Source: Acidimicrobiia bacterium
GTDB taxonomy: Bacteria > Actinomycetota > Acidimicrobiia > Acidimicrobiales > JAHEJN01
DNA: 48,086 nucleotides
Assembly: GCA_029861625.1 (NCBI GenBank)
Contig: JAOTZB010000001.1
Span: forward strand, 1-48,086
Reading direction: 5' to 3'
In this document: in pieces, positions 26,769-43,272 of the stretch
Numbering within the stretch: position 1 is the first letter of the stretch
Layout of the letters: every line of letters starts with the position of its first letter
Translations under genes and position numbers: made by a program
Notes under the pieces: model-generated
What the model was told of the DNA's origin: nothing
The model's input: the letters and a program-made list of their open reading frames with translations, nothing else
Database searches by the model: none

Positions 26769-26784
26769 AACCGGTCTCGGTACT

Positions 26785-26825: not shown

Positions 26826-26854
26826 AACGGCCGTTCCATCGAAATGGAGTGAAC

Positions 26855-27037: not shown

Positions 27038-27417
27038 GCCGTTCCGGCCCCGACGAGCGCGGCGTTGTCGCCGTTGAGCTCGCGCTGCTCCTGCCGTTCC
27101 TCGTCCTCATGGTCTGGGGGATCATCGAGTTCTCGCGCGGCTACAACGCCAAGGTCACCGTCACCCACTCGGCTCGAGAAGGCGTGCGAGCCTACGCCCT
27201 CGACGAGGATCCGGTCACTGCGGCCAAGAACGCAGCCGGAAGCCTCGACCCCAACAGCCTCACCGTCACGGTGTCGGGCGCACAACCGTGTACGACCGGC
27301 GAACAGGTGAGCGTCACCGTCAGCTACCCGATCGACTACGAGATCCCCTTCTTCGGGGGCGGGACGTGGACGGTGTCCGACACGGGCACGATGCGATGCG
27401 AAGCGGGCACGCCGTGA
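27034..27417 (+). CDS. tadE: TadE-like pseudopilin/minor pilin
   Basis: GTGA overlap with the flp-2 stop. N-terminus ERGVVAVELALLLPFLVLMVWGIIEFSRGY is the TadE-like domain. Confidence 0.8.
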   Translation: MSRSGPDERGVVAVELALLLPFLVLMVWGIIEFSRGYNAKVTVTHSAREGVRAYALDEDPVTAAKNAAGSLDPNSLTVTVSGAQPCTTGEQVSVTVSYPIDYEIPFFGGGTWTVSDTGTMRCEAGTP

Positions 27418-28460
27418 CACCCCGGACGAACGAGCGTGGCGTGGCGGCCATCATGGTCGCGCTCATGACCGTCGTGATCGTCGCATTCGCGGCGTACGCG
27501 GTCGATGCGGGCGTCCTCTTCCAGGAGAAGCGCGAGCTCCAGGTCGGCGCCGAGGCGGCGGCTCTGGCCATCGCCCAGGACTGCGCAGGCGGAAACTGCG
27601 GCACCTTCAACGGCACTGCGGAGACCTACGCCGACGCCAACGCCACCGACGACGAGGCCCGGGTCATCTCGGTGACCTTTCCCCAGGCGAATCAGGTACG
27701 AGTCGACGTGGGGAGCCGCAACGGCGGTGAGGACCGCGATGGCGATCCGAACACCGTCGACACGTTCTTCGCCCCCGTGATCGGCGTGAACGGTGTCGAT
27801 GTCCGGGCCTCGGCGGTCGCCGAGTGGGGGCCGGTCGGGTCGGCGCGCACCCTCCCGCTGATCTTCGGCCTCTGCGAATGGAATCAAGCAGTGGGCTCGA
27901 CGACGCTGCCCGTCGATCCGAGCGTGTTCCCGACCGCAATCGTCCCGATCGTCTTCCACTTCGGCAACGGCCCCGACGGGCCGAGCGAGTGCGCCTTCAA
28001 CGCCGGTCAGGACATCGATCCCGACGAGACCCGCCTTCCAGGAGGCTTCGGGTGGCTCGAGCAGACCAACTGCCAAACCGAGATCCTCGCCGGGAACTGG
28101 TTGAAGGCCAAGACCGGCGCCGGCGCACCGGGGAGCTGTGATCCGGCCGGGCTCGGCCTGGTGGTCGGCAATGTCGTCACCATCCCGATCTTCGACCAGA
28201 TCGTGAAGGGCGGCGACATCCCGGAGTGCTCGAGCGGCGGATTCTGCTACCACATCTTCGCCTTCGCCGGCCTCGAGATCACCGGCTTCCGGCTCCCCGG
28301 TGGCCAGGAGTGGCGCCAGGGCAACTACAGCGTCTGCGACGCGCTCGGTCCGGGCAACTCGACGACCTGCCTCGTCGGTCGCTTCACGGACGTGTTCGAA
28401 CCAGGAGCAATAACGGGCGGACCGAACCTCGGCGCCTTGACCATCAGCCTCGTCGGATGA
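27414..28460 (+). CDS. TadG-like/Tad_N-domain protein, Cys-rich (candidate minor or tip pilin)
   Basis: GTGA overlap with the tadE stop. ERGVAAIMVALMTVVIVAFAAYAVDAGVLFQEKRELQ matches the TadE/G-like N-terminal segment. The predicted extracytoplasmic body has 10 Cys. Confidence 0.7.
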   Translation: MTPRTNERGVAAIMVALMTVVIVAFAAYAVDAGVLFQEKRELQVGAEAAALAIAQDCAGGNCGTFNGTAETYADANATDDEARVISVTFPQANQVRVDVGSRNGGEDRDGDPNTVDTFFAPVIGVNGVDVRASAVAEWGPVGSARTLPLIFGLCEWNQAVGSTTLPVDPSVFPTAIVPIVFHFGNGPDGPSECAFNAGQDIDPDETRLPGGFGWLEQTNCQTEILAGNWLKAKTGAGAPGSCDPAGLGLVVGNVVTIPIFDQIVKGGDIPECSSGGFCYHIFAFAGLEITGFRLPGGQEWRQGNYSVCDALGPGNSTTCLVGRFTDVFEPGAITGGPNLGALTISLVG

Positions 28461-28479
28461 CGATGGAAAGGATTATTCG

Positions 28480-29376
28480 ATGAACAAGAAAGTATTGGGC
28501 ATCATCGTGGCCATCGCGCTCGCCGGGTTCGGTACGTTCGCGCTGGCCGCATACGTGGAGGGCGCCGAGGATCGGGCGCTCGAGGGCGAGGAGCTCGTCC
28601 AGGTGTACGTGGTCGAGGACCTGATCCCGGCGGGCATGCCCGCGGAGGACATCGTCGACCGGGTAGCCCAGGAGCGGGTCCCCGCCAAGATCGTCCCCGA
28701 CGGCGTGATCAGCGACCTCGACGTGCTCGAGGAGCTCATCGCCTCGGTCGACCTCCTTCCCGGCGAGCAGCTCGTCAGGGGCCGGTTCAGCACGCCGGCA
28801 GTGTTCGATCGTGAGCAGGCACGGGCGATCGACGTGCCGCCCGGGCTCCAGGAGGTGACGCTGTCGCTCGATCCCCACCGTGCGGTCGGTGGCAACATCC
28901 TGCCCGGCGACTCCGTGGGCGTGTTCTTGTCGTTCGATCCCTTCGACCTCGAAGGAGTCGTCGACATCGACAATGCCGAGGAGACCACGTTCTCCGATCT
29001 CGCGATCCAGTCGAGCCAGACCGACGACGGTTCCGGCGAGACGACCGAGGACGACGCGGAGACAACGGCACAGAAGACGCCGAACACGACCTCGCTGACC
29101 CTGCACAAGGTGCTCGTCACGAACGTGCAGCTCGAACGGCTCCCGGAGACGATCGAGGAAGAGTCGAGCGAGGGCATCAACTCCGAGACCACCCTGGCCC
29201 CCACCGGCAATCTTCTGGTGACGGTTGCGCTCGACACTGCCGACGCCGAGCGGCTCGTGTTCGGGGCCGAGTTCGGCCATGTCTGGCTGTCGTCGGAGTC
29301 CGAGGAAGCTCGGGAGCTCGGTGGACGCATCCAGACCCGGGCGACCGTCTACCTGGATCTCTCGAGGGTGAACTGA
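28480..29376 (+). CDS. cpaB: Flp pilus assembly protein CpaB/RcpC (SAF-domain)
   Basis: N-terminal anchor KKVLGIIVAIALAGFGTFALAAYV. SAF-like VYVVEDLIPAGMP...DLLPGEQLVRGRF. Carries an acidic/Thr-rich insertion. Confidence 0.85.
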   Translation: MNKKVLGIIVAIALAGFGTFALAAYVEGAEDRALEGEELVQVYVVEDLIPAGMPAEDIVDRVAQERVPAKIVPDGVISDLDVLEELIASVDLLPGEQLVRGRFSTPAVFDREQARAIDVPPGLQEVTLSLDPHRAVGGNILPGDSVGVFLSFDPFDLEGVVDIDNAEETTFSDLAIQSSQTDDGSGETTEDDAETTAQKTPNTTSLTLHKVLVTNVQLERLPETIEEESSEGINSETTLAPTGNLLVTVALDTADAERLVFGAEFGHVWLSSESEEARELGGRIQTRATVYLDLSRVN

Positions 29377-29377
29377 G

Positions 29378-30568
29378 ATGCGCGACGTTGTATTGGCAAG
29401 CGCCGAGACGGCGTTCGAGGATCGCATCCGCTCGGCCTTCAACGGAACGCTGAACGGGCAGCTCGCCCGAATCTCGGAACCGAATGTCGATCGCCTGATC
29501 GACCAGGACCCGGCGATCATCGCGCTCGGCCCCGACCTCCAGGTCGACGAGATGTTGACCGTGGTCGAGGAGATCGACCGGCGCCGGCCCGAGATCACCG
29601 TGATGATGATCGTCGAGCCCACCGCCTCGTTGTGGGAGCGGGCCCTCCGCGCCGGCGCCCGTGACCTCATCGATCCCGAAACCAGCGACGAGCTCCTCCG
29701 CGAGGCGATCGAACGGGCGATGAAGCGCTCGACCCGCCAGCGCCAGAACGTGGTTGCGCGGTACGAGCCGCCCGATGCACCGCCCGAGGTCGGACACGGC
29801 CGCATTCTGGTCGTGGCCTCCCCGAAGGGTGGCAGCGGGAAGACGATGCTCGCCAGCAACCTGGCATACGGCCTGGCCCGGCGACACCCGAGCGAGGTCG
29901 CCGTCGTCGATCTCGACCTCCAGTTCGGCGACATCGGCACGGCTCTGCGGCTCTCGCCCGAGTACTCCATGGCGCACGCACTCGAGTTCACCGACGATCC
30001 GGTGCAGCTGAAGAGCTTCATGACTGCGCACCCGGCCGGGTTCTGGGCACTCTGTGCCCCCGACTCGCCCGGTGTGGCCGACGAGCTGTCGGCCGAGGCG
30101 GTCCAGAAGGTGCTGGCGACGCTGTCGAGGGAATTCCCATTCCTGGTGGTCGACACGGGCGCGGGACTCGACGAGCACACGCTCACGGCTCTCGACATGG
30201 CGACGGACCACGTGCTCGTGTCGACCACCGATGTCACGGCGATCCAGAGCCTGCGCAAGGTGATGGTCGTGCTCGATCAGCTCGACCTCGAAGGTGCGAC
30301 CCGACACGTCGTGCTGAATCGGGCGAACGCCAAGGTCGGTCTGACCACCGAGGACATCGAGCGCACGATCGGCCTGCCGATCGAGACGCGGATTCCGAGC
30401 GCCCGCATCGTTCCGACCGCGATGAACCAGGGCACACCGATCCTCGAGGACAACGCACGCTCGTCGGTCGGTCGGTCGATCGACGGCCTGATCGAGCGGC
30501 TCGACCCTGTGCACGCCGACGGATCACGACGTTCGAGACGCCAACGACGAAAGGGAGCGGAGCAATGA
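29378..30568 (+). CDS. tadZ: TadZ/CpaE: receiver-like N-domain + ParA/MinD-type ATPase
   Basis: Deviant Walker A VVASPKGGSGKTMLASNLA. The N-terminal domain is about 120 aa and CheY-like. Starts 1 nt after the cpaB stop (TGAgATG). Confidence 0.88.
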   Translation: MRDVVLASAETAFEDRIRSAFNGTLNGQLARISEPNVDRLIDQDPAIIALGPDLQVDEMLTVVEEIDRRRPEITVMMIVEPTASLWERALRAGARDLIDPETSDELLREAIERAMKRSTRQRQNVVARYEPPDAPPEVGHGRILVVASPKGGSGKTMLASNLAYGLARRHPSEVAVVDLDLQFGDIGTALRLSPEYSMAHALEFTDDPVQLKSFMTAHPAGFWALCAPDSPGVADELSAEAVQKVLATLSREFPFLVVDTGAGLDEHTLTALDMATDHVLVSTTDVTAIQSLRKVMVVLDQLDLEGATRHVVLNRANAKVGLTTEDIERTIGLPIETRIPSARIVPTAMNQGTPILEDNARSSVGRSIDGLIERLDPVHADGSRRSRRQRRKGAEQ

Positions 30569-32016
30569 GACTCGGGGATCGACTCAAGCAGGTCCAGGAT
30601 CGTGAGCCGAGCGAGGGCGACGCGGCGGCGGTCACACCCGTGCCGGCGCCACCGGCGGGGACGGTCCAGGCGGTCAACCGCAACGGCGACGACGGCGCAG
30701 AGGTCCGCGAGCTGCCGGTGAACCCCCTGGTGGGGCTCCGGCTCCGGGCCCAGGAGGCGCTGTTCAGCCGCCTCGGGAGTCGCCTGCACGACTCGTCGTT
30801 GTCGGCCGAGCAGCTCCAGCGCCAGGTGCACGACGAGCTGCTCCAGATCGTCGACGCCGAGAACGCGCCGCTGAGCCCGAGCGAGCGCGAGACGCTCGTC
30901 TCGACCATGGCCCACGACATCTTGGGCTACGGCCCGCTCCAGGCCTACCTCGAGGACGATGCCGTCACCGAGATCATGGTCTCGAGCGGCGGACCGGTCT
31001 ACGTCGAGCGTGGCGGCGTGATCGAGGCGACGGGCTCGCGGTTCTTGTCCGAGGAGCACCTGCGCCGGGTCATCGAACGCATCGTGTCCGACGTCGGTCG
31101 GCGCATCGACGAGTCGTCGCCGATGGTCGACGCCCGCCTTCCCGATGGCTCCCGGGTCAACGCGGTGATCCCGCCGCTGACGGTCGACGGCGCGAGCCTG
31201 ACCGTCCGCAAGTTCTCCCGGCGTCCGTTCCTCATCGACGACCTCATCTCGAACCAGACGATCACGCCGCGCGTCGCGTCGGTCCTGGAGGCCTGCGTTG
31301 CCGCCCGTATCAGCGTGCTGGTGAGCGGTGGGACCGGCTCCGGCAAGACCACCTTCCTGAACGTGCTCTCGTCGTTCATCGGCGACCGGGAACGTGTCGT
31401 CACCATCGAGGACGCCGTCGAGCTCCAGATGCAACAGCCGCATGTCATCCGAATGGAGACCCGCCCACCCAACCTCGAAGGCACGGGACAGGTCACGATC
31501 CGCGATCTCGTCAGGAACTCGCTTCGCATGCGGCCCGATCGCATCATCGTCGGCGAGGTCCGCGGCGGCGAGGCCCTCGACATGTTGCAGGCCATGAACA
31601 CCGGCCACGAGGGATCGCTCACGACCCTGCACGCCAACTCACCCCGTGATGCGCTCGCCCGACTCGAGACGATGGTCCTGATGGCGGGCATGGACCTGCC
31701 GTTGCGAGCCATTCGCGAGCAGATCGCGAGCGCCATCGGTGTCATCGTCCACACCGCCCGTCTCAGCGACGGCAGCCGCAAGGTCGTCGGCGTGAGCGAG
31801 GTGACCGGCATGGAGGGCGACATGATCCAGCTGTCGGAGATCTTCTCGTTCGACTGGGACGCAGGCGTCGACCCGCACGGCCGGTTCCTCGGTGTGGCCC
31901 AGCCCACCGGGTTGCGGCCGACCTTCGCGAAGCGACTGGCCGAGCTCGGCACCGAGCTCCCACCCGACACCTACGGCAACTCACACGAGAAGCTGATCGC
32001 AGGGGGCTCGAGGTGA
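30565..32016 (+). CDS. tadA: TadA/CpaF secretion ATPase
   Basis: Walker A SGGTGSGKTTFLN, Asp box, Walker B RIIVGEVRGGEA and His box TGHEGSLTTLHAN. ATGA overlap with tadZ. Confidence 0.95.
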   Translation: MRLGDRLKQVQDREPSEGDAAAVTPVPAPPAGTVQAVNRNGDDGAEVRELPVNPLVGLRLRAQEALFSRLGSRLHDSSLSAEQLQRQVHDELLQIVDAENAPLSPSERETLVSTMAHDILGYGPLQAYLEDDAVTEIMVSSGGPVYVERGGVIEATGSRFLSEEHLRRVIERIVSDVGRRIDESSPMVDARLPDGSRVNAVIPPLTVDGASLTVRKFSRRPFLIDDLISNQTITPRVASVLEACVAARISVLVSGGTGSGKTTFLNVLSSFIGDRERVVTIEDAVELQMQQPHVIRMETRPPNLEGTGQVTIRDLVRNSLRMRPDRIIVGEVRGGEALDMLQAMNTGHEGSLTTLHANSPRDALARLETMVLMAGMDLPLRAIREQIASAIGVIVHTARLSDGSRKVVGVSEVTGMEGDMIQLSEIFSFDWDAGVDPHGRFLGVAQPTGLRPTFAKRLAELGTELPPDTYGNSHEKLIAGGSR

Positions 32017-33974
32017 AGCCCGGTCGCGACAACCAGGTCGCCGTCCTGTTGGCCACGCTGATGGTGAGCCTGTACGTGGTCGCCGGTCAGGGTTTCGTCG
32101 CGACCGCGCAGGAACCCTCCGAGCTGATCGTCGAACAGGTCGTCGACGACGACTTCCCGGTGGTCCAGCTGACCGTGACGGCGCCGCGTGCGCTCATCGG
32201 AACCGATCTCGTCGACGACGACTTCGTGGTCGTCGACGACGATGTCCCCCGCGACGTGCGGATCGATCGAGTCCCCAGCGACGACCTCGAGGTCGTCTTG
32301 TTGGTCGACACGTCGGGCAGCATGAGCGGGGCGCCGATCGCGCAGGCCCGAGAGGCTGCGTCCGTCTTCATCGACCAGCTTCCCCCCACCACGAGAGTCG
32401 CGGTCATGGGCTTCGGGTGGACGCCGGCCGTGGTCGAACCGTTCACCACCGATCTCGACCTCGCCCGGGCAGCCGTCGAACGGCTGGGCGCATCAGGGGA
32501 GACCGCGTTGTACGACGGGGTCTCGGCGGCCGTCGCGCAGTTCGACCTGACGACGAACGCTCAACGACGCATCGTCCTGGTCAGCGACGGTGGCGACACC
32601 GTGAGCGAGTCCGGTCTCGTCGCGACGAACGTATTGCTCGACTCCTCGGACCTCCAGCTCCAGGTGATCTCGCTGGTCACCGCCGAGTCGGACTCGTCTG
32701 CCCTCGAGTCGTTGGCGAGGAGCGGGAACGGGCGGGTGGTCGAGGCCAGCGACCCCGAAGCACTCACCGATGTGTTCGACGGCGTCGCCTCGGCCCTCGT
32801 GAACCAGTACCGGGTCTCGTTCGAGCTCGACGGAGGTGGTCGCACGATCATCGGGATCGGGCTCGACCGCGACGGAACCAGCGCGACGGCCTCGATCGAG
32901 GCGTCTTTCGCGGAGGTGGCGGCTCCCGCGACGCCGGCACCGGTTGCGAGCGAGCCGGCGGCCAGTCCGGCCGAGCCGGAGGTCGCCATCGCGCCGCCTC
33001 CGAGAGTCACCCCCGACACCGGCAGCAGCTGGTTGCTACCGGCCGGGCTGGGCGCGAGCTTCTTCGGGCTCGTCGTCCTGCTTGCTGTGCTCTTTGCGCC
33101 GGGCCGGCGTCAGAACGTCCTGCGGGACTGGGCACCGGCCGCGGCGACATCGAGTCGGGCGGTCGGGCGCTGGGTTCGCGGCACGCCGGGGTGGGTCATG
33201 TCGGCAGTCGACAGCACGCTGTCCCGCCGGGGCCGTGAGCGCCGGCTCGAGCTCACGCTCGCACAGGCCGGCATCGAGATGCGTCCGGCGGAGGTGCTGC
33301 TCTTGTCGACCGTCGCAACGCTCGTCGCCGTGCTGGTCGGCATGGTGTTCGGCGGGATCGTCGGCGGGATCCTCCTCGGGGTCACCGCAGTGCTGGTCGT
33401 CAGGACGCTCATCAAGCGCCGCGCCGAGGCACGGAAGGCGAAGTTCGCCGAGCAGCTGCATGGCGTGCTCCAGATGATGGCGGCATCGGTTCGGGCCGGC
33501 TACTCGATCGCTCAGGCGGTCGACACGGTGGCCCGGGAAGCCGAGTCGCCTGCACGCGACGAGTTCCAACGTGTTCTCGTCGAGGTCCAGCTCGGTCGCG
33601 ACATGACCGACGGCTTCGCGGCGCTCGCCGAACGGGTGGACAACGAGGACTTCCGGTGGGTGGTCGAGGCCATCGATATCAGCCGCGCCGTCGGCGGTGA
33701 CCTCGGTGAGGTCCTCGACAACATCGCGTCGACCATCCGAGACCGTGACCGGGTGCGGCGCCACGTCCAGACCCTCAGCTCGGAGGGCCGGCTCTCCGCG
33801 TGGATTCTCTCGGCGCTGCCGTTCGTCATGGCCGGATGGCTCGCCTTCGTCAATCCCGACTATCTGGCCCAGCTGACCGATCGCGGCAACGGCCGGGCGC
33901 TCATCGGATGCACGCTGATCCTGGTCGGCATAGGGATCGTGTGGATGCAACGCATCGCGCGGCCAGAGTTCTAG
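32013..33974 (+). CDS. tadB: fusion protein: signal/anchor + extracytoplasmic vWA domain + Pro/Ala linker + TadB (T2SSF) platform domain
   Basis: GTGA overlap with tadA. MIDAS motif VLLVDTSGSMSG...GETALYDG...VLVSDGGDT. Linker AAPATPAPVASEPAASPAEPEVAIAPPP, TM LGASFFGLVVLLAVLF, then the T2SSF block LQMMAASVRAGYSIAQAVDTVAREAESPARDEFQRV. Confidence 0.85.
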   Translation: MKPGRDNQVAVLLATLMVSLYVVAGQGFVATAQEPSELIVEQVVDDDFPVVQLTVTAPRALIGTDLVDDDFVVVDDDVPRDVRIDRVPSDDLEVVLLVDTSGSMSGAPIAQAREAASVFIDQLPPTTRVAVMGFGWTPAVVEPFTTDLDLARAAVERLGASGETALYDGVSAAVAQFDLTTNAQRRIVLVSDGGDTVSESGLVATNVLLDSSDLQLQVISLVTAESDSSALESLARSGNGRVVEASDPEALTDVFDGVASALVNQYRVSFELDGGGRTIIGIGLDRDGTSATASIEASFAEVAAPATPAPVASEPAASPAEPEVAIAPPPRVTPDTGSSWLLPAGLGASFFGLVVLLAVLFAPGRRQNVLRDWAPAAATSSRAVGRWVRGTPGWVMSAVDSTLSRRGRERRLELTLAQAGIEMRPAEVLLLSTVATLVAVLVGMVFGGIVGGILLGVTAVLVVRTLIKRRAEARKAKFAEQLHGVLQMMAASVRAGYSIAQAVDTVAREAESPARDEFQRVLVEVQLGRDMTDGFAALAERVDNEDFRWVVEAIDISRAVGGDLGEVLDNIASTIRDRDRVRRHVQTLSSEGRLSAWILSALPFVMAGWLAFVNPDYLAQLTDRGNGRALIGCTLILVGIGIVWMQRIARPEF

Positions 33975-33984
33975 GAGGAATCTC

Positions 33985-34896
33985 GTGCCTGTCATCGTCT
34001 ACATCGCCTCGTTCGCTATCGCCGTGTCGGTTCCGATCGCCTGGTGGTCGGTTGCGAGCTCTCGCGGCGGGCATCGGGCCCGCCAGCATCTGGTGGCTGC
34101 GGGCCGTTCGGCCGATCTGAGGAGTCTGAGACTCGAACTGCCTGCCGCAGACCGTGTCTGGGGTCCGCTCAGCGGCTGGGCTGTCGGCAAGGTCAGGCGG
34201 ATCACACCCGGTGGCGTCGTCGATCAGATGCAGCGACGGATCCACCTCGCGGGCATCAGCTCGAGATGGACCGTCGAGCGAGTGCTCGGCATCAAGGTTC
34301 TCGTGACGCTGACGTTGATCGCGCTGGGGCTGATCGGCGTGGCCTCGTCGCCGTCGCCGAGCAGCGGCCTGCTCGCGATCTCGATGGTCGGTGCCGGTTG
34401 GATCATGCCCGACGTCGTGCTCCGGCGGCGGGCCGACACCCGCCAGGCGGACATCCGACGTGACCTGCCCGACGTCATCGACCAGGTGATGATCAACGTC
34501 GAGGCCGGACAGAGCTTCGATGCTGCGCTCGACAGGGTTTCTCGCCGGGGGAGCGGCCCCGCTGCCGAGGAATTCCGGCGGGTCATGCAGGACATCCAGT
34601 TCGGCATGACCCGCCGCGAAGCTCTCGAGCTTCTCGTCGAACGCACCGATGTCCCCGACCTCCGCGAGCTCGTCCAATCGCTGGCCCAGGCCGAGCGGTA
34701 CGGCGTCCCCCTCGGACGTGTTCTCAGGGTCCAGGCCGACGAGCTGCGTGACAAGCGCAAGGAACGGGCCGAGGAACGCGCACAGAAGGTGCCGATCAAG
34801 ATCCTCTTCCCCGTGATCTTCTGCATCTTCCCGGCACTGTTCGTGATCATCCTCGGTCCCGGCATCCTCCAGGTCGTGGAAGACGGGGTCATCTGA
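33985..34896 (+). CDS. tadC: TadC (T2SSF-family platform protein)
   Basis: GTG at 33985 follows AGGAGG. T2SSF block DLPDVIDQVMINVEAGQSFDAALDRV...LAQAERYGVPLGRVL, with a C-terminal TM. Confidence 0.88.
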   Translation: MPVIVYIASFAIAVSVPIAWWSVASSRGGHRARQHLVAAGRSADLRSLRLELPAADRVWGPLSGWAVGKVRRITPGGVVDQMQRRIHLAGISSRWTVERVLGIKVLVTLTLIALGLIGVASSPSPSSGLLAISMVGAGWIMPDVVLRRRADTRQADIRRDLPDVIDQVMINVEAGQSFDAALDRVSRRGSGPAAEEFRRVMQDIQFGMTRREALELLVERTDVPDLRELVQSLAQAERYGVPLGRVLRVQADELRDKRKERAEERAQKVPIKILFPVIFCIFPALFVIILGPGILQVVEDGVI

Positions 34897-34897
34897 G

Positions 34898-35914
34898 ATG
34901 GCTCTGAACGCCGCACCCGGCCGATACATGGGCAAGTCGGTCTCGGTTCGCACGATGCTCGACCGGCTCGGACGCGCCGACCTCGTTGCGGTCCGCAACG
35001 GCGAGACGCCCGTCGCAACGGGCTTCGAGCCGCTCGATCGTGAGCTCGAGGGCGGCTTCCGGGCCGGCGAGCTCGCCGTGCTCGGCGGTCCGCCGGGCGT
35101 GGGCAAGACCGCTGTGGCCCTGCAATGGGCCCGCCATGCAGCCGCAGCAGGACGCGACGTTGCCTTCGTCTGCTACGAGCACGATCCCGACCAGCTCTTC
35201 GGCCGGCTCCTCGCCGCCGAGATCGGCGCTCTCGGCGCGGTCGGAGACGCCGACGAACGGGCGCAGCTCCGCGATGTCATCCGCGACGCGATGGCAGGGG
35301 CATGGGGAGCGCAGGGCCCGGCCAGCCGACTGCCGAGGGTGCGGGCCGCACTGTCACGGATCGACGTGTACGCGCACCACCTCCAGCTCATCGGCGGGTC
35401 CCGTCTCACGACGCTCGTCGAGCTCGAGCAGCTCTGCGTCGAATTCGGCGCCGCCAACGGGCTGATCATCGTGGACTACCTCCAGAAGCTCCCGATCCCC
35501 GAGCTCGCCGGCGACAGCAACGGACGCATGGTGGCCGCCGCCGAAGGGCTCAAGGACATCGCGCTCCGCCAGCACGTCGCCGTCGTGGCGTTGTCCTCGG
35601 CGGGCTCGCAGGCCCTACGCGAGCGCCGGCTCGGGTTGCCGTCACTCCGGGGAGCGGCGGCCATCGCATACGAGGCAGACATCGCGATCGTCATGAACGA
35701 AAAGCGCGAGATCGTCTCGCGAGTGCACGTCAACAGCGACCCGGCGCGGCTGCGATCGTTCGCGGGTTGGGTCGTGATGACCATCGAGAAGAACCGCCGA
35801 GGTCCGGCGCCGATCGACACCGAGTTCGCGAAGAATCTCGAGTTCTTCAGGCTCGAACCTGCCGGTCGTTACGTGAGCGAGAAGCTGATCGACGAGATCC
35901 TCTACCTGGAGTAG
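34898..35914 (+). CDS. stand-alone RecA-superfamily P-loop ATPase (DnaB C-terminal domain / KaiC-like), last gene of the tad operon
   Basis: Starts 1 nt after the tadC stop. Walker A GGPPGVGKT, Walker B LIIVDYLQK, and a DnaB_C-like block LSSAGSQALRERRLGLPSLRGAAAIAYEADIAIVMNEKRE. No DnaB N-terminal domain. Confidence 0.8.
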   Translation: MALNAAPGRYMGKSVSVRTMLDRLGRADLVAVRNGETPVATGFEPLDRELEGGFRAGELAVLGGPPGVGKTAVALQWARHAAAAGRDVAFVCYEHDPDQLFGRLLAAEIGALGAVGDADERAQLRDVIRDAMAGAWGAQGPASRLPRVRAALSRIDVYAHHLQLIGGSRLTTLVELEQLCVEFGAANGLIIVDYLQKLPIPELAGDSNGRMVAAAEGLKDIALRQHVAVVALSSAGSQALRERRLGLPSLRGAAAIAYEADIAIVMNEKREIVSRVHVNSDPARLRSFAGWVVMTIEKNRRGPAPIDTEFAKNLEFFRLEPAGRYVSEKLIDEILYLE

Positions 35915-35928
35915 GCCGGCTCGCAGCC

Positions 35929-36696
35929 CTACGCGCCGATGGCGTGGTACCCGCCGTCGACGTGCAACATCTCACCGGTCGTCTGCGGGAACCAGTCGGA
36001 GAGCAACGCGACACACGCGTTGGCGACGGCGCTGCTGTCGTTCACGTCCCATCCGAGCGGTGCTCGCGATTCCCACGCGTCCTCGAACTCGCCGAAACCC
36101 GGAATGGACTTCGCGGCCATCGTGCGGATCGGTCCGGCTGCGACGAGGTTGACGCGGATCTGCTGCGGGCCGAGCGCCCGCGCCAGATACCGACTGGCCG
36201 ACTCGAGGGCTGCCTTGGCGACGCCCATCCAGTTGTAGGCCGGCCACGCCACCGTGGCGTCGAAGTCGAGGCCGACGATGGATCCGCCGTCGGGCATCAG
36301 CGGGGCCACGACCTCGGCCACCGTCTTCAGCGAGTACGCGGAGATCTGCATGCCGACCGAGATGTCGTCCCAATCGGCGGCCATGAAGTCCTCGCCGAGT
36401 CCGATCTCGGGCATGAAGCCGATGGCGTGCAGGGCGCCGTCGATGGTCCCGAACTGGGTCGCGAGGGCCTCGCGCAGCGCGACCACCTGTTCGGCGTCGG
36501 TCACGTCGAGCTCGAGAACAGTCGGCGCGGTCGGGAGCTTGCGTGCCGTGCGTTGGGTCAGTCGTAGCCCGCGGCCCGCCCCGGTGAGAACCACCTCGGC
36601 GCCCTCCTCGATGGCCCGCTCGGCGACCCCGTACGCCAGCGACGCATCGGTGAGCACGCCGGTGATCAGTAGCCGCTTGCCGGCGAGAATTCCCAT
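35929..36696 (-). CDS. fabI: NADH-dependent enoyl-ACP reductase (FabI/InhA type)
   Basis: MGILAGKRLLITGVLTDASLAYGVA..., Tyr/Lys catalytic region. ATG at 36696 is preceded by AGGAGG. Confidence 0.9.
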   Translation of the reverse strand: MGILAGKRLLITGVLTDASLAYGVAERAIEEGAEVVLTGAGRGLRLTQRTARKLPTAPTVLELDVTDAEQVVALREALATQFGTIDGALHAIGFMPEIGLGEDFMAADWDDISVGMQISAYSLKTVAEVVAPLMPDGGSIVGLDFDATVAWPAYNWMGVAKAALESASRYLARALGPQQIRVNLVAAGPIRTMAAKSIPGFGEFEDAWESRAPLGWDVNDSSAVANACVALLSDWFPQTTGEMLHVDGGYHAIGA

Positions 36697-36795
36697 GGCT
36701 GTCCTCCTGGGTCGGGCGATCGTCACCCTAGCGATACCGTCCCCGTCGATCGGCCATCGCGTCGGCGCAATTCATCGCGAGAGCGCGGGGTCGGT

Positions 36796-37473
36796 ATGGT
36801 TGCGCTCGTGAAGATCGGAATTCTCGGCGCAACCGGTCCGGCGGGCCGCTCCTTGGCCGCACGGCTCGCGTCGGTCGAGTACACGACCGTGATCGGGTCC
36901 CGCTCGAAGTACCGCGGCATGGAGATCCGCGACCAGATCGTCGAGGCCTGGCCCGACATCACGCTCGACCTCGAAGCCGGCGACAACGAGAACGCGGCCG
37001 CAGCAGACGTGGTCGTCGTCGCCACTCCCTGGGACGCCGCCGCCGTGACCGTCCGATCGGTGGCGCCCCTGCTCGCGGGCAAGGTCGTCATCTGCATGTG
37101 CAACGCGCTGGCCAAGGTCGGGCACGAGTTCCAGCCCCTGGTACCGCCGCGCGGGTCGGTGGCTGCGAGCGTGCAGGCCGCCGTGCCCAAGGCCCGGGTG
37201 TCGGCCGCTCTCCACCATGTCCCGGCCCGCGACCTGGGCCAGCTCGACGAGCCGGTGCACAGCGATGTGCTGATCTGTTCCGATCACCCGTCGGCCACCG
37301 AGCAGACGACCGACATCGTGAGCCGGATCCCCGGCGTGCGCTCACTCGACGCCGGCGAGCTGTCGAATGCTGCGCCCATCGAGGCCTTTGCAGCCGTGCT
37401 GTTGCAGCTCAACGTTCGTTACAGGAGTCGGGTCGCGGTGCGCTTCACCGGCCTCGGCGACGAAGCGACGTGA
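36796..37473 (+). CDS. npdG: NADPH-dependent F420 reductase-like oxidoreductase
   Basis: KIGILGATGPAGRSLAARLA Rossmann N-terminus and an F420_oxidored-like body. An alternative GTG start is at 36808. Confidence 0.72.
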   Translation: MVALVKIGILGATGPAGRSLAARLASVEYTTVIGSRSKYRGMEIRDQIVEAWPDITLDLEAGDNENAAAADVVVVATPWDAAAVTVRSVAPLLAGKVVICMCNALAKVGHEFQPLVPPRGSVAASVQAAVPKARVSAALHHVPARDLGQLDEPVHSDVLICSDHPSATEQTTDIVSRIPGVRSLDAGELSNAAPIEAFAAVLLQLNVRYRSRVAVRFTGLGDEAT

Positions 37474-37490: not shown

Positions 37491-38609
37491 ATGCGGCTCT
37501 ACGAGACATCTCGACGCGAGGTCGTGCCGTTCACACCAGGGCCCATCGTGACCATGTACACGTGCGGCATCACGCCGTATGACGCCACCCATTTCGGCCA
37601 CGCGACCGTCTATCTGACCTACGACGTGTTGCAGCGGCGACTCCGCGACCTCGGCCACGAGACCCGTTGCGTGCGCAACATCACCGACGTCGACGACGAC
37701 TTGTTGCGCAAGGCCAGAGAGCTCGGCGTGCACTACCTCGACCTGGCCGCGGCCGAGACCGCCCGTTTCGACGACGACATGACCGCGCTCGGCATGCTCG
37801 AGTCGTGGAGCGAGCCCCGGGCGACGTCGGCGATCTCCGACATCCGCGGCTTCATCGGCATGCTGCTCGACACCGGGAACGCCTACCAGTCGGGCGGCGG
37901 GGTCTACTTCGAAGCCGCATCGTCGGATCGGTTCGGTCGGCTGAGCCACTTCGACCGCGACGAGATGCTCCGTCTCTCGGCGAGCCGGGGCGGCAACCCG
38001 GACGACCCGAACAAGCGCGACGCTCTCGACTTCGTCCTCTGGCAACCCTCGGCACCGGACGAGCCGGCATGGGACTCGTTGTGGGGACCGGGACGTCCGG
38101 GCTGGCACATCGAGTGCTCGGCGCTCGCGATGCGTGAGCTCGACACGACCATCGATCTGCACGGTGGGGGAGCCGACCTCGTGTTCCCCCATCACGAGTG
38201 CGAGGCAGCGCAGTCCGAGGCTGCCACCGGCCGCCCGTTCGTGCGGCACTGGATGCACCAGGCGATGGTGCGGATGGACGGGGAGAAGATGTCGAAGTCG
38301 CTGGGCAATCTCGTGTTCGTCAGTGACCTGCGCAAGACCCACGACACCCGGGCGATCCGGCTCGCCGCCATCGTCCACCACTACCGCGACGAATGGGAGT
38401 GGAACGACGAGCTCATGCCGACCGCCGATGCCCGGCTCGAGCGGTGGCTCGACGCCGGCGCGGGCGATGGCGCGTTGGCCGCGGTCCGAGCGGCTCTCGA
38501 CGACGATCTCGATACCCCGAGCGCCGTGGCGGCGATCGACGCCGCGGCGGCCCGGGCCGAAGGGGTCTCGGTCGCCGCGCACCTCCTCGGCGTCGATCTG
38601 CGAGACTGA
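37491..38609 (+). CDS. mshC: L-cysteine:1D-myo-inositol 2-amino-2-deoxy-alpha-D-glucopyranoside ligase (mycothiol ligase)
   Basis: CGITPYDATHFGHATVYLTYDVL, NITDVDDDLLRKA, GRPGWHIECSA and KMSKSLGNLVFVSDL. A CysRS-like catalytic core without an anticodon-binding domain. An alternative GTG at 37470 would give a GTGA overlap with the upstream stop. Confidence 0.85.
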   Translation: MRLYETSRREVVPFTPGPIVTMYTCGITPYDATHFGHATVYLTYDVLQRRLRDLGHETRCVRNITDVDDDLLRKARELGVHYLDLAAAETARFDDDMTALGMLESWSEPRATSAISDIRGFIGMLLDTGNAYQSGGGVYFEAASSDRFGRLSHFDRDEMLRLSASRGGNPDDPNKRDALDFVLWQPSAPDEPAWDSLWGPGRPGWHIECSALAMRELDTTIDLHGGGADLVFPHHECEAAQSEAATGRPFVRHWMHQAMVRMDGEKMSKSLGNLVFVSDLRKTHDTRAIRLAAIVHHYRDEWEWNDELMPTADARLERWLDAGAGDGALAAVRAALDDDLDTPSAVAAIDAAAARAEGVSVAAHLLGVDLRD

Positions 38610-38639
38610 CCCCGCCGCCGACCGGACGAAAGGAGAACA

Positions 38640-39392
38640 GTGGCGAGAGAAGTCGGACAGCTCTACGGCGTGGCCCGCACCGTGCTGTTCCCGTTGTGCC
38701 GGTTCGCGTGGCGACTCCAGACATCGGGGCTCGAGAAGCTCCCCACCGAGGGTGCAGCCATCCTCGCGCCGAACCACACGTCGGTCATCGACTCGTTCCT
38801 CCTGCCGGCCGTGCTCCCGCGCCGCATCACCTATGTCGGCAAGGCCGAGTACCTCGACGACTGGAAGACCAAACATCTGTTCCCTGCGTTGGGGATGATC
38901 GCCATAGATCGCAGCGGCGGCGACTCGGCCAAGGCGGCGCTCGATGCCGCCGCGACCGTGCTCGAGGACGGCGAGCTGTTCGGGATCTACCCGGAGGGAA
39001 CCCGCTCCCGGAGCGGAGATCTCCACAAGGGCCACACCGGCGTGGTCCGTCTCGCGATGCGCACGGGTGCACCGATCTTCCCCGTCGGCATCGTCGGCAC
39101 TCGCGACGTACAGCCCCCCGATCAACCCCTGCCCCGCCCGTTCATGACCGTCGGCATCGACGTCGGCGACCCGATCGACGTGCGGGCAACCATCAGCGAT
39201 CCCGACGATCCCCGCGAGTACCGCCGTATCGCCGACCGGCTGATGTTCGACATCGCTCTGCTCTCGGGTCAGACCTACGTCGACGAGTACGCCACGAAGA
39301 AGACGACACCGGTGGCACCATCCGATCCCGACGAGGCACCTCTCACCCGCCGGCGCTCCAGTGCCGACGTGCTCGCCGGAACCGCTGCCTGA
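38640..39392 (+). CDS. plsC: 1-acyl-sn-glycerol-3-phosphate acyltransferase family protein
   Basis: NHTSVIDS (HX4D box) and FGIYPEGTRSRSG motifs. GTG at 38640 follows AAGGAG. Confidence 0.85.
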   Translation: MAREVGQLYGVARTVLFPLCRFAWRLQTSGLEKLPTEGAAILAPNHTSVIDSFLLPAVLPRRITYVGKAEYLDDWKTKHLFPALGMIAIDRSGGDSAKAALDAAATVLEDGELFGIYPEGTRSRSGDLHKGHTGVVRLAMRTGAPIFPVGIVGTRDVQPPDQPLPRPFMTVGIDVGDPIDVRATISDPDDPREYRRIADRLMFDIALLSGQTYVDEYATKKTTPVAPSDPDEAPLTRRRSSADVLAGTAA

Positions 39393-39454
39393 CGTCGAGG
39401 GCCGGCCCGGAACCCTCCTTGGCGCAGCGGTCGCGCCGCTACGCTGACGCCACC

Positions 39455-41422
39455 ATGGCCGAGATCTCGATCACCCTCCCGGACGGCTCCTCACGCGCCC
39501 TTCCCGAGGGCGCGACCGGCGCCGACCTGGCCGCCGCAATCGGCTCGGGACTGGCCAAGGCCGCACTCGTCGTCACCGCCGACGATGTGGTCCAGGACCT
39601 CGATGTCCCACTCGTCGACTCCCAACGCGTGGCCGTCGTCACCGCCGACTCCGAGCTCGGGCTCGAGACACTCCGGCATTCGACCGCACACGTTCTCGCC
39701 CAGGCCATCCTCGACCTGTACCCGGGAACCGAGCTGGCCATCGGACCCCCGATCGAACACGGCTTCTACTACGACGTCGATCTGCCCGACCGCGCCACAC
39801 TGAGCGACGACGACCTCGAACGCATCGAATCGCGCATGCGCGAGATCGTCGCCGCTGATCAGCCCTTCACCCGACACGAGATCTCGGTGGCCGCAGCGCT
39901 CGAGCTGTTCGGCGACCACGTCTACAAGCGCGAGATCATCGAGCGCGTCGTCGGCGGCGACGGGGACGCCGAGCTCGCCGACGAGATCGGTGGCACCGAT
40001 TCGATCAGCTACTACGCCAACGGCGACACGTTCCTCGACATGTGCACCGGACCACACGTGCCGTCCACCGGTCGTCTCGGGCACTTCAAGCTCCAGAAGG
40101 TGGCGGGAGCGTACTGGCGCGGTGATGTCACCCGGCCCATGCTCCAGCGCGTCTACGGCACGGCATGGGCCTCCAAGAAACAACTGAAGCAGCATCTCCA
40201 CAATCTCGAGGAGGCAGAGAAGCGCGACCACCGCCGCCTCGCGACCGAGCTCGGGCTCGTGTCGTGGCCCGAGGAGCTCGGGCCGGGGCTGGCGGTGTGG
40301 CACCCCAAGGGGGCGATCATCCGTCGGATCATGGAGGACTACAGCCGCGATCGCCATGCCGAGGGCGGGTACGACTTCGTCTTCAGTCCCCACATTGCGA
40401 AGTCCGTGCTGTGGGAGACCAGCGGCCACCTCGACTTCTATGCCGACAGCATGTACCCGCCCATGGAGATGGACGGTGCGGCCTACTACCCGAAGCCGAT
40501 GAACTGCCCGTTCCACGTGATGATCTACAAGGGCGAGCAGCGGAGCTATCGCGACCTGCCGCTGCGCATGTACGAGCTCGGCACCGTGTATCGCTACGAG
40601 CTCTCGGGTGCCGTGCACGGCTTGATGCGCAGCCGGGGGTTCACCCAGGACGACTCGCACATCTTCTGCACCCGCGAGGACATCCAGGTCGAGCTGGCGT
40701 CGCTCCTCGCGTTCGTGCTCGACGTGTTGCGTGCGTTCGGCTTCGACGACTTCCAGGCCAGGCTGTCGACGCGTCCCCCGGAGAAGTCCGTCGGCAACGA
40801 CGACCTCTGGGACGAAGCCACCGATGGGCTCCGCGCCGCACTGGAGGCCGCGGCGCTCGACTACGAGCTCGACGAGGGTGGAGGCGCGTTCTACGGCCCG
40901 AAGATCGATGTCGACGTGCGCGACGCGATCGGACGAGCGTGGCAGCTGTCCACGATCCAGGTCGATTTCAACCTGCCCGAGCGCTTCGGTCTGGAGTACG
41001 TGAGCGGCAACGGCCAACGCCAGCGCCCGGTCATGATCCACCGTGCGCTGATGGGGTCGATCGAACGCTTCTTCGGCGTGCTCATCGAGCATTACGCGGG
41101 TGCGTTCCCAGCCTGGTTGGCGCCGATCCAGGCGCGCGTGCTCGCCGTGTCGGCCGACCACGAGGACCATGCGGTTGCACTGGTCGACGAGCTCCGGGCC
41201 GAAGGGTTCCGCATCGATCATGTCGTTGCCGACGATCCTCTGGGCAAGCGCATCCGCAATGCCAAGGTCGAGAAACTGCCGTATGTGTTGGTCGTGGGCG
41301 ACGACGACGTGGCGAACGGGACAGTCGGCGTGAACCCGCGGGGCGGCGAGGTCGAGCGTGACGTCAAGGTCAACGACTTCATCGCGCGCCTGGCCGACCA
41401 GGTCCTCAGTCACAGCGAATGA
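39455..41422 (+). CDS. thrS: threonine--tRNA ligase
   Basis: TGS start MAEISITLPDGS, editing-domain HSTAHVLAQA, class II motifs (FHVMIYK, GFTQDDSHIFC, GAFYGPKID) and a C-terminal anticodon-binding domain. The tracked 38393 start is a spurious extension. Confidence 0.97.
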   Translation: MAEISITLPDGSSRALPEGATGADLAAAIGSGLAKAALVVTADDVVQDLDVPLVDSQRVAVVTADSELGLETLRHSTAHVLAQAILDLYPGTELAIGPPIEHGFYYDVDLPDRATLSDDDLERIESRMREIVAADQPFTRHEISVAAALELFGDHVYKREIIERVVGGDGDAELADEIGGTDSISYYANGDTFLDMCTGPHVPSTGRLGHFKLQKVAGAYWRGDVTRPMLQRVYGTAWASKKQLKQHLHNLEEAEKRDHRRLATELGLVSWPEELGPGLAVWHPKGAIIRRIMEDYSRDRHAEGGYDFVFSPHIAKSVLWETSGHLDFYADSMYPPMEMDGAAYYPKPMNCPFHVMIYKGEQRSYRDLPLRMYELGTVYRYELSGAVHGLMRSRGFTQDDSHIFCTREDIQVELASLLAFVLDVLRAFGFDDFQARLSTRPPEKSVGNDDLWDEATDGLRAALEAAALDYELDEGGGAFYGPKIDVDVRDAIGRAWQLSTIQVDFNLPERFGLEYVSGNGQRQRPVMIHRALMGSIERFFGVLIEHYAGAFPAWLAPIQARVLAVSADHEDHAVALVDELRAEGFRIDHVVADDPLGKRIRNAKVEKLPYVLVVGDDDVANGTVGVNPRGGEVERDVKVNDFIARLADQVLSHSE

Positions 41423-41937
41423 GCCTCGAACGACTGTGGGCGACCTGGCGGAGCGACTACGTGGCCTCGATCGCACAGGCGCCGCCCCCCACCGGTGACC
41501 AGTCGCTGTTCGAAGGCATCCTCGCGAGCGGACTGTCCGACGAGGAGAGCGGCATCGTCTGGCGGGGACGGCACGCGTTCTCGCTCCTCAATCTGTACCC
41601 GTACACGAGCGGCCACGTGCTGGTGCTGCCGTATCGGGCCGTACCCGACCTCGGTGGGCTCACCGACGAGGAAGCGGCCGACCTGTGGCTGGGCATCCGG
41701 TCGGCCGAGGTGGCGATCACGAGTGCCTACTCGCCCGATGGCGTCAACATCGGCATGAACATCGGTCGAGCAGCCGGAGCGGGCGTGCCCGACCATCTCC
41801 ACGCCCACGTGCTGCCCCGGTGGGCCGGCGACACGAACTTCACCACCGCCATCGCCGAGGTCAGGTTGTTGCCCGAGTCGCTCGACATCACCTATCGCCG
41901 ACTAACCGAGGCCTGGCCCGATCACGGCGGCCGATAG
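41419..41937 (+). CDS. HIT family protein (Ap4A phosphorylase-like)
   Basis: LLNLYPYTSGHVLVLP and the histidine triad VPDHLHAHVLPRW. ATGA overlap with thrS. Confidence 0.88.
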   Translation: MSLERLWATWRSDYVASIAQAPPPTGDQSLFEGILASGLSDEESGIVWRGRHAFSLLNLYPYTSGHVLVLPYRAVPDLGGLTDEEAADLWLGIRSAEVAITSAYSPDGVNIGMNIGRAAGAGVPDHLHAHVLPRWAGDTNFTTAIAEVRLLPESLDITYRRLTEAWPDHGGR

Positions 41938-41946
41938 CGTGACGGC

Positions 41947-42477
41947 GTGAACGAAGACCTCCCGGGCGAACCCACCGACGAGGACGCAGGGGTGGACGAG
42001 GTCGATGCCGGCGATCGCTTGCCGGACGATCTCGACATCACCACGCTCGAGCTCCCGTACGTCTTCCCGAACAACAACCGCCGGCGACTCCCGGCGGTGC
42101 TCTACATCGCGACGGCGACGGTGTTCATCGCTGTGGCCCTCCTCGCCGACGGGAGTCCCCGTGTGAACTCGGGGTTCGTCGTCGCCGGCGTCTGCATCGC
42201 GGCGTTCGGCGTGTACAGCTGGGTGGCGGGCTGGAATCTCGACATCGACGAGCTCGACGCGCTCGCGATCGCCGCGAAGACGGTTGGTTTCCCCGTCGGG
42301 CATGCGTCCGCGCAGCTGGCCTGGCGTGGTGTGCTCAGCCGGCCGACCTGGCGCATACTCGTCTACTCGAACGAGCCCCAGCCCGAGCAGCGAGCGCTGG
42401 TCTTCGTCGACGGTGTCGACGGCGCGGTGCTCGACCAGATCGTGGAGGCGAACCCAGAGGACTTCTCCGAATACTAG
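41947..42477 (+). CDS. hypothetical 2-TM membrane protein with acidic N-terminus
   Basis: LPAVLYIATATVFIAVALLA and GFVVAGVCIAAFGVYSWVAGW helices. Good GC3 bias. No family recognised. Confidence 0.6.
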   Translation: MNEDLPGEPTDEDAGVDEVDAGDRLPDDLDITTLELPYVFPNNNRRRLPAVLYIATATVFIAVALLADGSPRVNSGFVVAGVCIAAFGVYSWVAGWNLDIDELDALAIAAKTVGFPVGHASAQLAWRGVLSRPTWRILVYSNEPQPEQRALVFVDGVDGAVLDQIVEANPEDFSEY

Positions 42478-42570
42478 GAAACCGGGGATCGGCCCGGTCG
42501 GAGCCCTCCGGAGTTTCTGGCGACTCGCCCGCTACTCTTGGCGTCAGGAAGCCCGGACGAAGGAGATCGG

Positions 42571-43260: not shown

Positions 43261-43272
43261 TCCCGACCCGCA

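Follow-up and report, generated by a model that had tools for sequence, protein, structure and literature searches.

The window analysed here, a stretch of 48,086 nucleotides from an Acidimicrobiia bacterium (contig JAOTZB010000001.1 of assembly GCA_029861625.1), carries a Tad (Flp) pilus operon whose last gene, termed gene X in the following, encodes a stand-alone ATPase with the C-terminal motor domain of DnaB-type helicases. The existence of the gene, its fold class and motifs, and the conservation of its link to Tad genes are established, and its product X is probably a functional accessory dedicated to Tad, of one kind or another. About 94% of related genomes keep X inside a Tad locus and no description of it was found, so that the actinobacterial Tad machine probably has an extra ATP-driven part. 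The Tad parts list, considered settled, contains no RecA-superfamily ATPase; X is an additional one, intact in its motifs and derived from DnaB. A preceding reading of the window from its letters only (the sequence-only reading) had supposed that canonical Tad sets lack such a protein and that it would be new. In agreement with this, full-text literature searches for DnaB-like, KaiC-like or helicase proteins together with Tad/Flp returned no description of the gene, and its homologues are named at NCBI just "DnaB-like helicase C-terminal domain-containing protein".

Gene X was delimited by open reading frame (ORF) calling and translation to positions 34898-35914 of the plus strand, coding for 338 amino acids (aa). 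The stop codon of tadC ends at 34896 and the ATG of gene X starts at 34898, with one nucleotide between them (tCTGAgATG). The junction of cpaB and tadZ at 29373-29380 has the same form (aCTGAgATG), while tadZ/tadA and tadA/tadB overlap as ATGA and GTGA, respectively. This frame, its distance from tadC and the likeness of the two junctions were all given correctly in the sequence-only reading. The public gene call (P0001) places the start at ATG 34928, 30 nucleotides downstream, and yields a product of 328 aa, so that automated annotation hides the coupling of X to tadC. We prefer the start at 34898 because it is preceded by a purine-rich Shine-Dalgarno-like stretch, GGAAGACGGGG, 10-20 nucleotides upstream, and because 15 of 20 related loci offer a candidate X start between -4 and +13 nucleotides from the end of tadC; no such stretch was seen when looked for upstream of 34928. 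With either start, gene X lies within 31 nucleotides of tadC on the same strand, and start and stop codons of the two genes overlap or abut in most loci. Promoter and terminator scans over 26000-37000 gave counts equal to shuffle expectation and nothing between tadC and X. The G+C content at third codon positions (GC3) of gene X is 0.86, like that of its neighbours, and its product is soluble, with no predicted transmembrane (TM) or hydrophobic segment.

By sequence, motifs and predicted fold, X is a DnaB C-terminal (RecA-core) domain equipped with a linker helix. It matches Pfam DnaB_C (PF03796) at 1.8e-21 and 77.1 bits (gathering cut-off 27), and its relatives align with this domain over profile positions 2-254 of 255; Pfam AAA_25 is matched as well. 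When the PDB was searched with a profile built from 28 sequences, DnaB was retrieved with E 2.8e-25 over positions 5-315. A model of X was computed with AlphaFold (AF2; predicted local distance difference test, pLDDT, 87.9; predicted TM-score, pTM, 0.85), and the top 50 Foldseek matches of this model are all DnaB chains, with E down to 5e-17 and TM-scores of about 0.7. The sequence-only reading had likened X to KaiC and ArlH too, and this part of it needs correction. The KaiC-type "ATPase" profile PF06745 (8e-8, 32 bits) is matched only at aa 39-102, corresponding to profile positions 1-65 of 231; KaiC_arch models cover only aa 39-104, and RecA models are likewise restricted to the P-loop segment around Walker A. 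The profile search of the PDB matched KaiC over only about 75 residues, and there were no FlaH/ArlH structures among the 60 matches listed (best of 274).

Further profiles set X apart from full-length relatives. TIGR00665, the DnaB equivalog, gives 66.9 bits against a cut-off of 385.25 and aligns at model positions 176-425 only. The DnaB N-terminal domain (PF00772) has no match in X, only about 35 residues preceding the core, which agrees with the earlier description of X as a stand-alone RecA-superfamily ATPase devoid of this domain. TIGR00416 (RadA/Sms) gives 28.9 bits against a cut-off of 403 over aa 33-100 only, and Pfam/NCBIfam scans detected neither Lon_C nor a zinc finger in X. As for phage families, X matches phrog_19 (DnaB-like replicative helicase) at 9e-30 and phrog_243 at 5.5e-12, the latter aligned over positions 18-254 of 273. 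PADLOC defence models returned only a marginal 17-bit match, and the flanks are housekeeping genes.

Motifs of X were assigned by alignment with DnaB of G. kaustophilus and E. coli:

34946-34975, plus strand: N-terminal helix, aa 17-26, aligning with the DnaB linker helix
35084-35110, plus strand: Walker A (H1), GGPPGVGKT, aa 63-71; K70 and T71 invariant in the family
35168-35185, plus strand: H1a, VCYEHD, with catalytic glutamate E94; CYEH aligns with SLEM of DnaB
35462-35488, plus strand: Walker B (H2), LIIVDYLQK, aa 189-197; D193, Q196 and K197 invariant; VDYLQK against IDYLQL of DnaB
35591-35710, plus strand: H3-H4 block of 40 aa, aa 232-271, from alignment to DnaB and column frequencies
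35786-35806, plus strand: EKNRRGP, arginine finger; K298 and R300 align with K418 and R420 of DnaB (GKQRNGP)
35843-35911, plus strand: C-terminal extension past the end of DnaB, FFRLEPAGRYVSEKLIDEILYLE; R318 conserved only in the Tad-linked clade

Both Walker motifs and the 40-aa block had been quoted exactly in the sequence-only reading. Among about 200 family sequences, no variation was seen at K70, T71, E94, D193, Q196, K197, K219, D261, K269, K298 and R300. Considering the motifs of superfamily 4 (SF4) helicases, H1, H1a, H2, H4 and the arginine finger are thus invariant or nearly so, and H3 is the one that is lost. SQLSR of DnaB is replaced by SSAGS in X (family consensus xAADxxG), and the A234 column, aligned with the H3 glutamine, contains alanine in 187 of 202 sequences. 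In DnaB this glutamine couples ATP to DNA binding. H4 is kept in the family (LRGxxAxAYEAD; in the alignment, LRGxxAIAYEAD against LRESGSIEQDAD in DnaB), and so is the adjoining basic loop, whose R244, R246, H249 and R251 are strongly conserved across most members. The subclade of the window is peculiar in that this loop has decayed, here by R246 to G, H248 to P and H249 to S, and in P0002, P0003 and P0005 by R251 to T or E, with ATPase motifs and operon position retained. Concerning the linker, profile positions 5-112 of X align with residues 153-262 of G. kaustophilus DnaB; in the model the helix lies at aa 17-25 and has low pLDDT (about 60). The DnaB linker helix docks on the neighbouring subunit.

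Judged by these motifs, X is a catalytically intact ATPase with an active site that would require a neighbouring subunit, and it very likely forms a ring like the DnaB C-terminal domain (CTD). The C-terminal extension is a candidate partner surface, since its R318 is conserved only in the Tad-linked clade.

To define the family, a profile search covering 1.84 billion protein representatives was performed. It yielded 332 cluster representatives at E <= 1e-30 and 39,270 at 1e-10, indicating that the family is small and sharply set off from ordinary DnaB. GTDB species genomes and metagenomes each gave more than 530 relatives of X; 160 loci, together with additional look-ups, were examined, and in the samples taken the family is confined to two bacterial phyla. 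Two clades separate cleanly, both by signature residues and in trees. The Actinomycetota-type clade (P66/E216/H277/R318) comprises sequences from Acidimicrobiia, Nitriliruptoria and others, and the Chloroflexota-type clade (Limnocylindria) is marked by Q66/N216/N277/C318. Cultured carriers of X homologues are Nitriliruptor alkaliphilus and Salsipaludibacter albus.

Linkage to Tad genes was found for Actinomycetota-type X in 45 of 48 informative loci (about 94%). Contexts are distributed as follows:

36 loci: X directly after tadC
7 loci: X at the opposite end of the Tad operon, transcribed divergently from flp
2 loci: other Tad genes in the flank
3 loci: no Tad genes (L009, L139, L153)
3 loci: flank too short to judge

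The divergent arrangement occurs for example in L081 (cultured Salsipaludibacter albus), L082, L083, L104, L110 and L120. Linkage persists at 40-60% identity and after rearrangement to the opposite side of the locus, and its occurrence in two gene orders speaks for a functional tie and against mere inheritance of synteny. Sampling that started from TadC, independently of X, gave five loci, three of which (L167-L169) have X directly after tadC. The sequence-only reading had named prophage or plasmid replication modules as the places in which homologues would speak against it; no Tad-linked homologue sits in a phage or plasmid replication module. Taken together, X is a widespread, non-obligatory accessory of this Tad subtype.

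Rare members of the family preserve a trace of its origin. Metagenomic proteins P0289 (519 aa) and P0293 (491 aa) match the family profile with about 342 bits and contain PF00772 in addition. They are full-length relatives that belong to the Chloroflexota-type clade and have a family-type CTD including the altered H3, which indicates descent from a full-length DnaB-like helicase. Neighbour-joining trees rooted with the E. coli DnaB CTD nest the Chloroflexota clade, N-terminal-domain members included, within Tad-linked diversity; as this conflicts with parsimony of the N-terminal domain, the rooting was set aside. An apparent TadC-X fusion (P0378, 524 aa) was also rejected: its N-terminal part resembles frameshifted TadC, has no Pfam T2SSF match and is cut by a contig end.

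Within the window, the operon has the order flp-flp-tadE-tadG-cpaB-tadZ-tadA-tadB-tadC-X. Its genes and immediate neighbours are:

24021-24698, minus strand: LuxR/GerE-type response regulator, paired with the histidine kinase and divergent from flp
24695-26251, minus strand: histidine kinase, divergent from flp
26583-26768 and 26855-27037, plus strand: two tandem flp pilin genes
27034-27417, plus strand: tadE-like minor pilin (Pfam/NCBIfam)
27453-28460, plus strand: tadG-like pseudopilin (Pfam)
28480-29376, plus strand: cpaB/rcpC (Pfam/NCBIfam)
29378-30568, plus strand: tadZ, ParA/MinD-type (Pfam/NCBIfam)
30565-32016, plus strand: tadA/cpaF secretion ATPase (T2SSE 212 bits, TIGR03819 347 bits, FlaI model 1.7e-59)
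32013-33974, plus strand: tadB, with N-terminal signal/TM segment and extracytoplasmic VWA domain (MIDAS motif DTSGS)
33985-34896, plus strand: tadC, T2SSF platform protein (Pfam)
34898-35914, plus strand: gene X, stand-alone DnaB-CTD-like ATPase (Pfam DnaB_C, AF2 model, Foldseek)
35929-36726, minus strand: fabI, convergent, marking the 3' boundary of the operon (NF005908, 392 bits against cut-off 299)

Upstream genes being Tad genes by Pfam/NCBIfam, the placing of X as terminal and tightly joined gene of a Tad operon holds, as does its position last before a convergent fabI; stop codons of the two are separated by 14 nucleotides. No primase, replication, phage or plasmid gene was detected among window genes annotated or scanned, as the sequence-only reading had anticipated for the first three. 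The remaining window is ordinary chromosomal DNA with ABC transporters, a CoA-transferase, cysS, thrS and a lipid cluster of phosphatidylinositol mannoside (PIM) type. Downstream of fabI, at approximately 37491-45300, cysS, an acyltransferase, thrS, HIT, a CDP-alcohol phosphatidyltransferase, a lipid A-type acyltransferase and a GT4 glycosyltransferase are found; they form a cluster of the thrS-pgsA-pimA type, which is characteristic of chromosomes in Actinomycetota and speaks for a native chromosomal location. With canonical Tad loci (flp, tadV, rcpCAB, tadZABCDEFG) the operon shares two flp genes, tadE, a tadG-like gene, cpaB, tadZ and tadA-C in the usual order. It differs by the added gene for a DnaB-like ATPase and by TadB with an extracytoplasmic VWA domain. 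There is no secretin, as expected for a monoderm, and no prepilin peptidase among the genes scanned.

We compared X with systems it resembles. With DnaB (PF03796, SF4) it shares whole-domain sequence and fold, the linker helix, Walker A, the H1a glutamate, the DYLQ of Walker B, LRxSxxIxxxAD of H4 and the K-x-R arginine finger. On the contrary, it is devoid of the N-terminal collar, or primase-binding, domain, its H3 is replaced, it has insertions of about 14 and about 10 aa as well as a C-terminal extension of roughly 10 aa, and it is encoded in a pilus operon away from replication genes. As far as profiles and motifs tell, X is therefore a member of the DnaB_C domain family yet no replicative DnaB, given its score below the equivalog cut-off, the missing N-terminal domain and the altered H3. 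Its nearest architectural parallel are the RecA-core-only DnaB-like proteins of mycobacteriophages (PMC4523182; phrog_243), likewise single-domain cores of about 270-340 aa without N-terminal domain. These are phage replication proteins, encoded in replication modules, and only distantly similar, whereas X is chromosomal and encoded in a pilus operon. RadA/Sms shares the RecA/DnaB-like ATPase core and is tied to DNA uptake pathways, but X has neither its zinc finger nor its Lon-like domain.

In respect of gene context, X also resembles archaeal ATPases. ArlH/FlaH and the FlaH-like protein of Epd pili are, like X, stand-alone RecA-superfamily ATPases encoded together with a TadA/ArlI-type ATPase and a platform protein, and the catalytic glutamate of ArlH/FlaH is kept in X too. 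The working form of ArlH is a hexamer that binds ArlI (bioRxiv 10.1101/2021.03.19.436134). The sequence-only reading had regarded the archaellum as the filament machine known for such a RecA-like partner. This is too narrow, since Epd pili, the closest relatives of Tad, also carry a FlaH-like ATPase, in the place where Tad has TadZ; TadZ itself is listed by Denise et al. as the secondary ATPase of Tad (PMC6668835). X belongs to a different family, matches KaiC-type models only at the P-loop segment and has a DnaB-type arginine finger and H4, and its Tad locus keeps TadZ in addition. The resemblance to KaiC/ArlH is, on these criteria, one of role and superfamily only, that is, analogy and not homology.

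Based on this comparison, we favour a tentative model, plausible though short of probable and drawn by analogy with ArlH, in which X would be a second cytoplasmic ring modulating the TadA/TadBC motor. A cytoplasmic ATPase derived from the motor domain of a DnaB-type helicase would have been recruited as dedicated accessory of one actinobacterial Tad subtype and would be made together with TadC, the stop codon of tadC and the start codon of gene X being one nucleotide apart. It may assemble into a DnaB-like hexamer through the linker helix and inter-subunit ATP sites with a trans-acting arginine finger. The ring would dock on the cytoplasmic face of the TadA-TadB/TadC motor, with E216, H277, R318 and the C-terminal extension as candidate docking surfaces. 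In the Tad-linked clade these three residues are conserved, and in the unlinked one others take their place, which fits a clade-specific docking surface. Depending on its nucleotide state, X might then influence the assembly of the single TadA motor or the direction in which it works. In function, though not by descent, X would thus correspond to the ArlH/FlaH ring, the partner of ArlI. ArlH acts on ArlI in a comparable way, as the FlaH-like ATPase presumably does in Epd.

Several observations weigh against such a role. X is DnaB-like, and to our knowledge almost all characterised DnaB_C proteins act on DNA. H4 and the basic loop are shared with the Tad-unlinked clade and with its N-terminal-domain members, and this conservation in both clades points to a shared substrate, e.g. 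nucleic acid, rather than to Tad-specific regulation. All of the approximately 100 Chloroflexota-type loci have the arrangement FtsH-M20 peptidase-X and none of them adjoins Tad genes. The expectation of the sequence-only reading that homologues be enriched next to tad genes is accordingly borne out by the Actinomycetota-type and TadC-seeded loci and not by the Chloroflexota type. Members of the Actinomycetota clade show a genuine and conserved association with Tad, but this specificity does not extend to the entire family. Finally, the two remaining TadC-seeded loci do without X: in L170 a kinase-regulator pair directly follows tadC, in the usual position of X, and L171 has no X, which implies that X is not essential for pilus assembly.

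The strongest competitor takes up the first of these points. X might work with the pilus as single-stranded DNA translocase or helicase, for example as motor for DNA uptake via a Tad competence pilus, which we consider possible but on the unlikely side. In other uptake systems, ComFA, ComM and RadA play a part in pulling or processing DNA. Whole-domain homology and fold match to DnaB suit this proposal, as do the retained H1, H1a, H2, H4 and arginine finger. The same holds for the conserved basic loop RRLRLHHLRGS, whose position is that of the single-stranded DNA contact site of DnaB (contact residues as in the 4ESV structure), for the conservation of loop and H4 in both clades and in N-terminal-domain members, and for the CTD motifs that P0289 and P0293, with their DnaB N-terminal domain, have in common with X. 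The best NCBIfam match of TadA, TIGR03819, is named "heli_sec_ATPase", which we presume to stand for "helicase/secretion neighbourhood" and which would be another helicase-Tad association in Actinobacteria. Moreover, core-only DnaB-like proteins are able to unwind DNA (PMC4523182), X matches their family phrog_243, and Micrococcus luteus, an actinobacterium, needs its Tad pili for natural transformation (PMC4322843). The M. luteus tad study, however, mentions no such gene (PMC4322843), and comEA, comEC and dprA are absent from every annotated flank. Alanine occupies the H3 glutamine column in most members, loop arginines and histidines are lost in the window subclade while ATPase motifs and operon position are kept, and enzymes that process DNA are not usually encoded in such close coupling with a membrane platform gene. 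The absence of an N-terminal domain, together with the H3 and loop changes, gives reasons to doubt canonical helicase action by X, as far as its residues can be interpreted. That a DnaB-derived ring captured by the Tad pilus pumps or unwinds incoming DNA at the cytoplasmic face appears unlikely, and that bacteria independently re-invented an ArlH-type second ring from DnaB to control a bidirectional TadA motor is about as likely as this captured DNA-uptake ring.

Alternatively, X could be a housekeeping DnaB paralogue engaged in replication restart, repair or similar, with its position behind tadC as mere inherited synteny. The Chloroflexota loci without Tad genes, the three unlinked Actinomycetota-type loci (L009, L139, L153) and the related Tad loci lacking X (L170, L171) are what one would expect in this case. 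We nevertheless find it improbable, because Tad linkage survives 40-60% identity divergence as well as rearrangement divergent from flp, because start and stop codons of X and tadC overlap or abut in most loci, and because clade-specific conserved residues separate linked from unlinked forms. Still less credit is due to X as a KaiC-like signalling hub that feeds the adjacent histidine kinase/LuxR-type pair controlling flp-tad transcription and does not act on the motor itself. The pair is indeed a recurrent neighbour, X lies between flp and two-component genes in L081 and L083, and in L170 the pair takes the place of X; but no domain connects X to two-component proteins, its KaiC similarity is confined to the P-loop segment, and it is coupled to tadC, not to the regulator genes. 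Vertical retention of a relic of the FlaH-like ATPase from the archaeal Epd pilus, thought ancestral to Tad, is highly improbable. Epd loci do encode such an ATPase where Tad has TadZ (PMC6668835), and window TadA scores 1.7e-59 on the archaellum FlaI model, but X is far closer to DnaB (77 bits, whole domain) than to KaiC (65 profile positions), some of its relatives possess a DnaB N-terminal domain, and in the samples taken the family was met in two bacterial phyla only; the evidence so far points to a place inside DnaB and not beside the FlaH-like arCOG04148. Hardly any weight at all can be given to the idea that X is left over from the replicative helicase of an integrative element, plasmid or prophage, in spite of the phrog_19 match (9e-30). 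No phage, plasmid, integrase or primase genes were found among the scanned genes of the window or in related flanks, GC3 is like that of neighbouring genes, PADLOC gives no notable match and X has a stable position in a chromosomal operon. This last explanation is effectively refuted by gene context.

Tad pili are widespread organelles of adhesion, colonisation and, in Actinobacteria, DNA uptake, and X is built into their operon across a little-studied actinobacterial lineage (Acidimicrobiia, Nitriliruptoria and relatives). If X touches the motor, as in the second-ring model, it bears on how one TadA/CpaF ATPase can power extension as well as retraction; direction switching by a single Tad motor is an open question (PMC11300603). 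X would then parallel the ArlH/FlaH partner in archaeal relatives of Tad, by convergence and not by descent. If X handles DNA instead, it would supply Tad-dependent transformation with a cytoplasmic motor missing so far, and, should it pump or unwind DNA, it would be a new pilus-coupled uptake motor in a phylum for which little of the competence machinery is known. Either way, a replication-helicase domain has been re-used in a new cellular machine, and cultured carriers make its role testable.

Chloroflexota-type loci have some features of their own. Their X has a variant Walker A, GxQGxGKT, and no canonical N-terminal domain, and a conserved unannotated ORF of 427 aa lies convergently downstream. 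The loci are L014, L018, L020, L022-L035, L037-L047, L049-L054, L056-L057, L059-L080 and L105-L166, with Actinomycetota-type loci interspersed in these number ranges. TadZ-like matches 6-10 kb downstream of Chloroflexota X were discarded, as they represent REC-ParA proteins located by NfeD/SPFH and ComM-like genes and there is no Tad locus. The MrfA-like DEAD-box helicase found near Chloroflexota X is absent from all Actinomycetota-type flanks.

TadB of the window (653 aa) has a signal/TM segment at aa 7-31 and a VWA domain with intact metal ion-dependent adhesion site (MIDAS), DTSGS, at aa 99-103; a Pro/Ala-rich linker and a TM helix (aa 338-365) precede the T2SSF domain. The VWA domain is thus expected on the outer side of the membrane, at the pilus platform. 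The TadB-VWA fusion is present in most related loci (L081, L084, L167, L168, L170), not in L169 or L006. We considered this domain as a partner of X and rejected it, given that it is extracellular, lying between the signal/TM segment and the next TM helix, while X is cytoplasmic, and given that X also occurs with VWA-less TadB (L169, L006). In L083 (2547-5489) a gene call of 980 aa joins TadA (T2SSE) to a VWA domain; since other loci have this domain on the extracytoplasmic side, the fusion is probably an artefact of a frameshift or of gene calling.

The histidine kinase and LuxR/GerE regulator pair also neighbours Tad/X loci L081, L083, L084, L168, L169 and L170 and probably controls transcription of flp-tad. 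A perfect 14-bp palindrome, CGTCAAAATTGACG, is located at 26456-26469, 114 nucleotides upstream of the first flp gene. Allowing up to two mismatches, it has two matches in the window (one site, both strands) against 0.13 expected by chance, and a similar palindrome, TCAAGATTGAC, precedes flp in one other locus only, L169. It is a possible candidate for a regulator binding site. Elsewhere in the window, a tRNA-Val (CAC) at 854-928 is the sole Rfam or ARAGORN match.

Some Acidimicrobiia contigs contain further Tad genes that begin about 0.2-4 kb downstream of X. L021 has a second locus of the order tadE-tadG-cpaB-tadZ-tadA-tadB (5325-10904), L003 has TadE/TadG genes, and L089 and L106 have an flp-like ORF in this position. 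This suggests that Tad loci are arranged in tandem in several Acidimicrobiia contigs.

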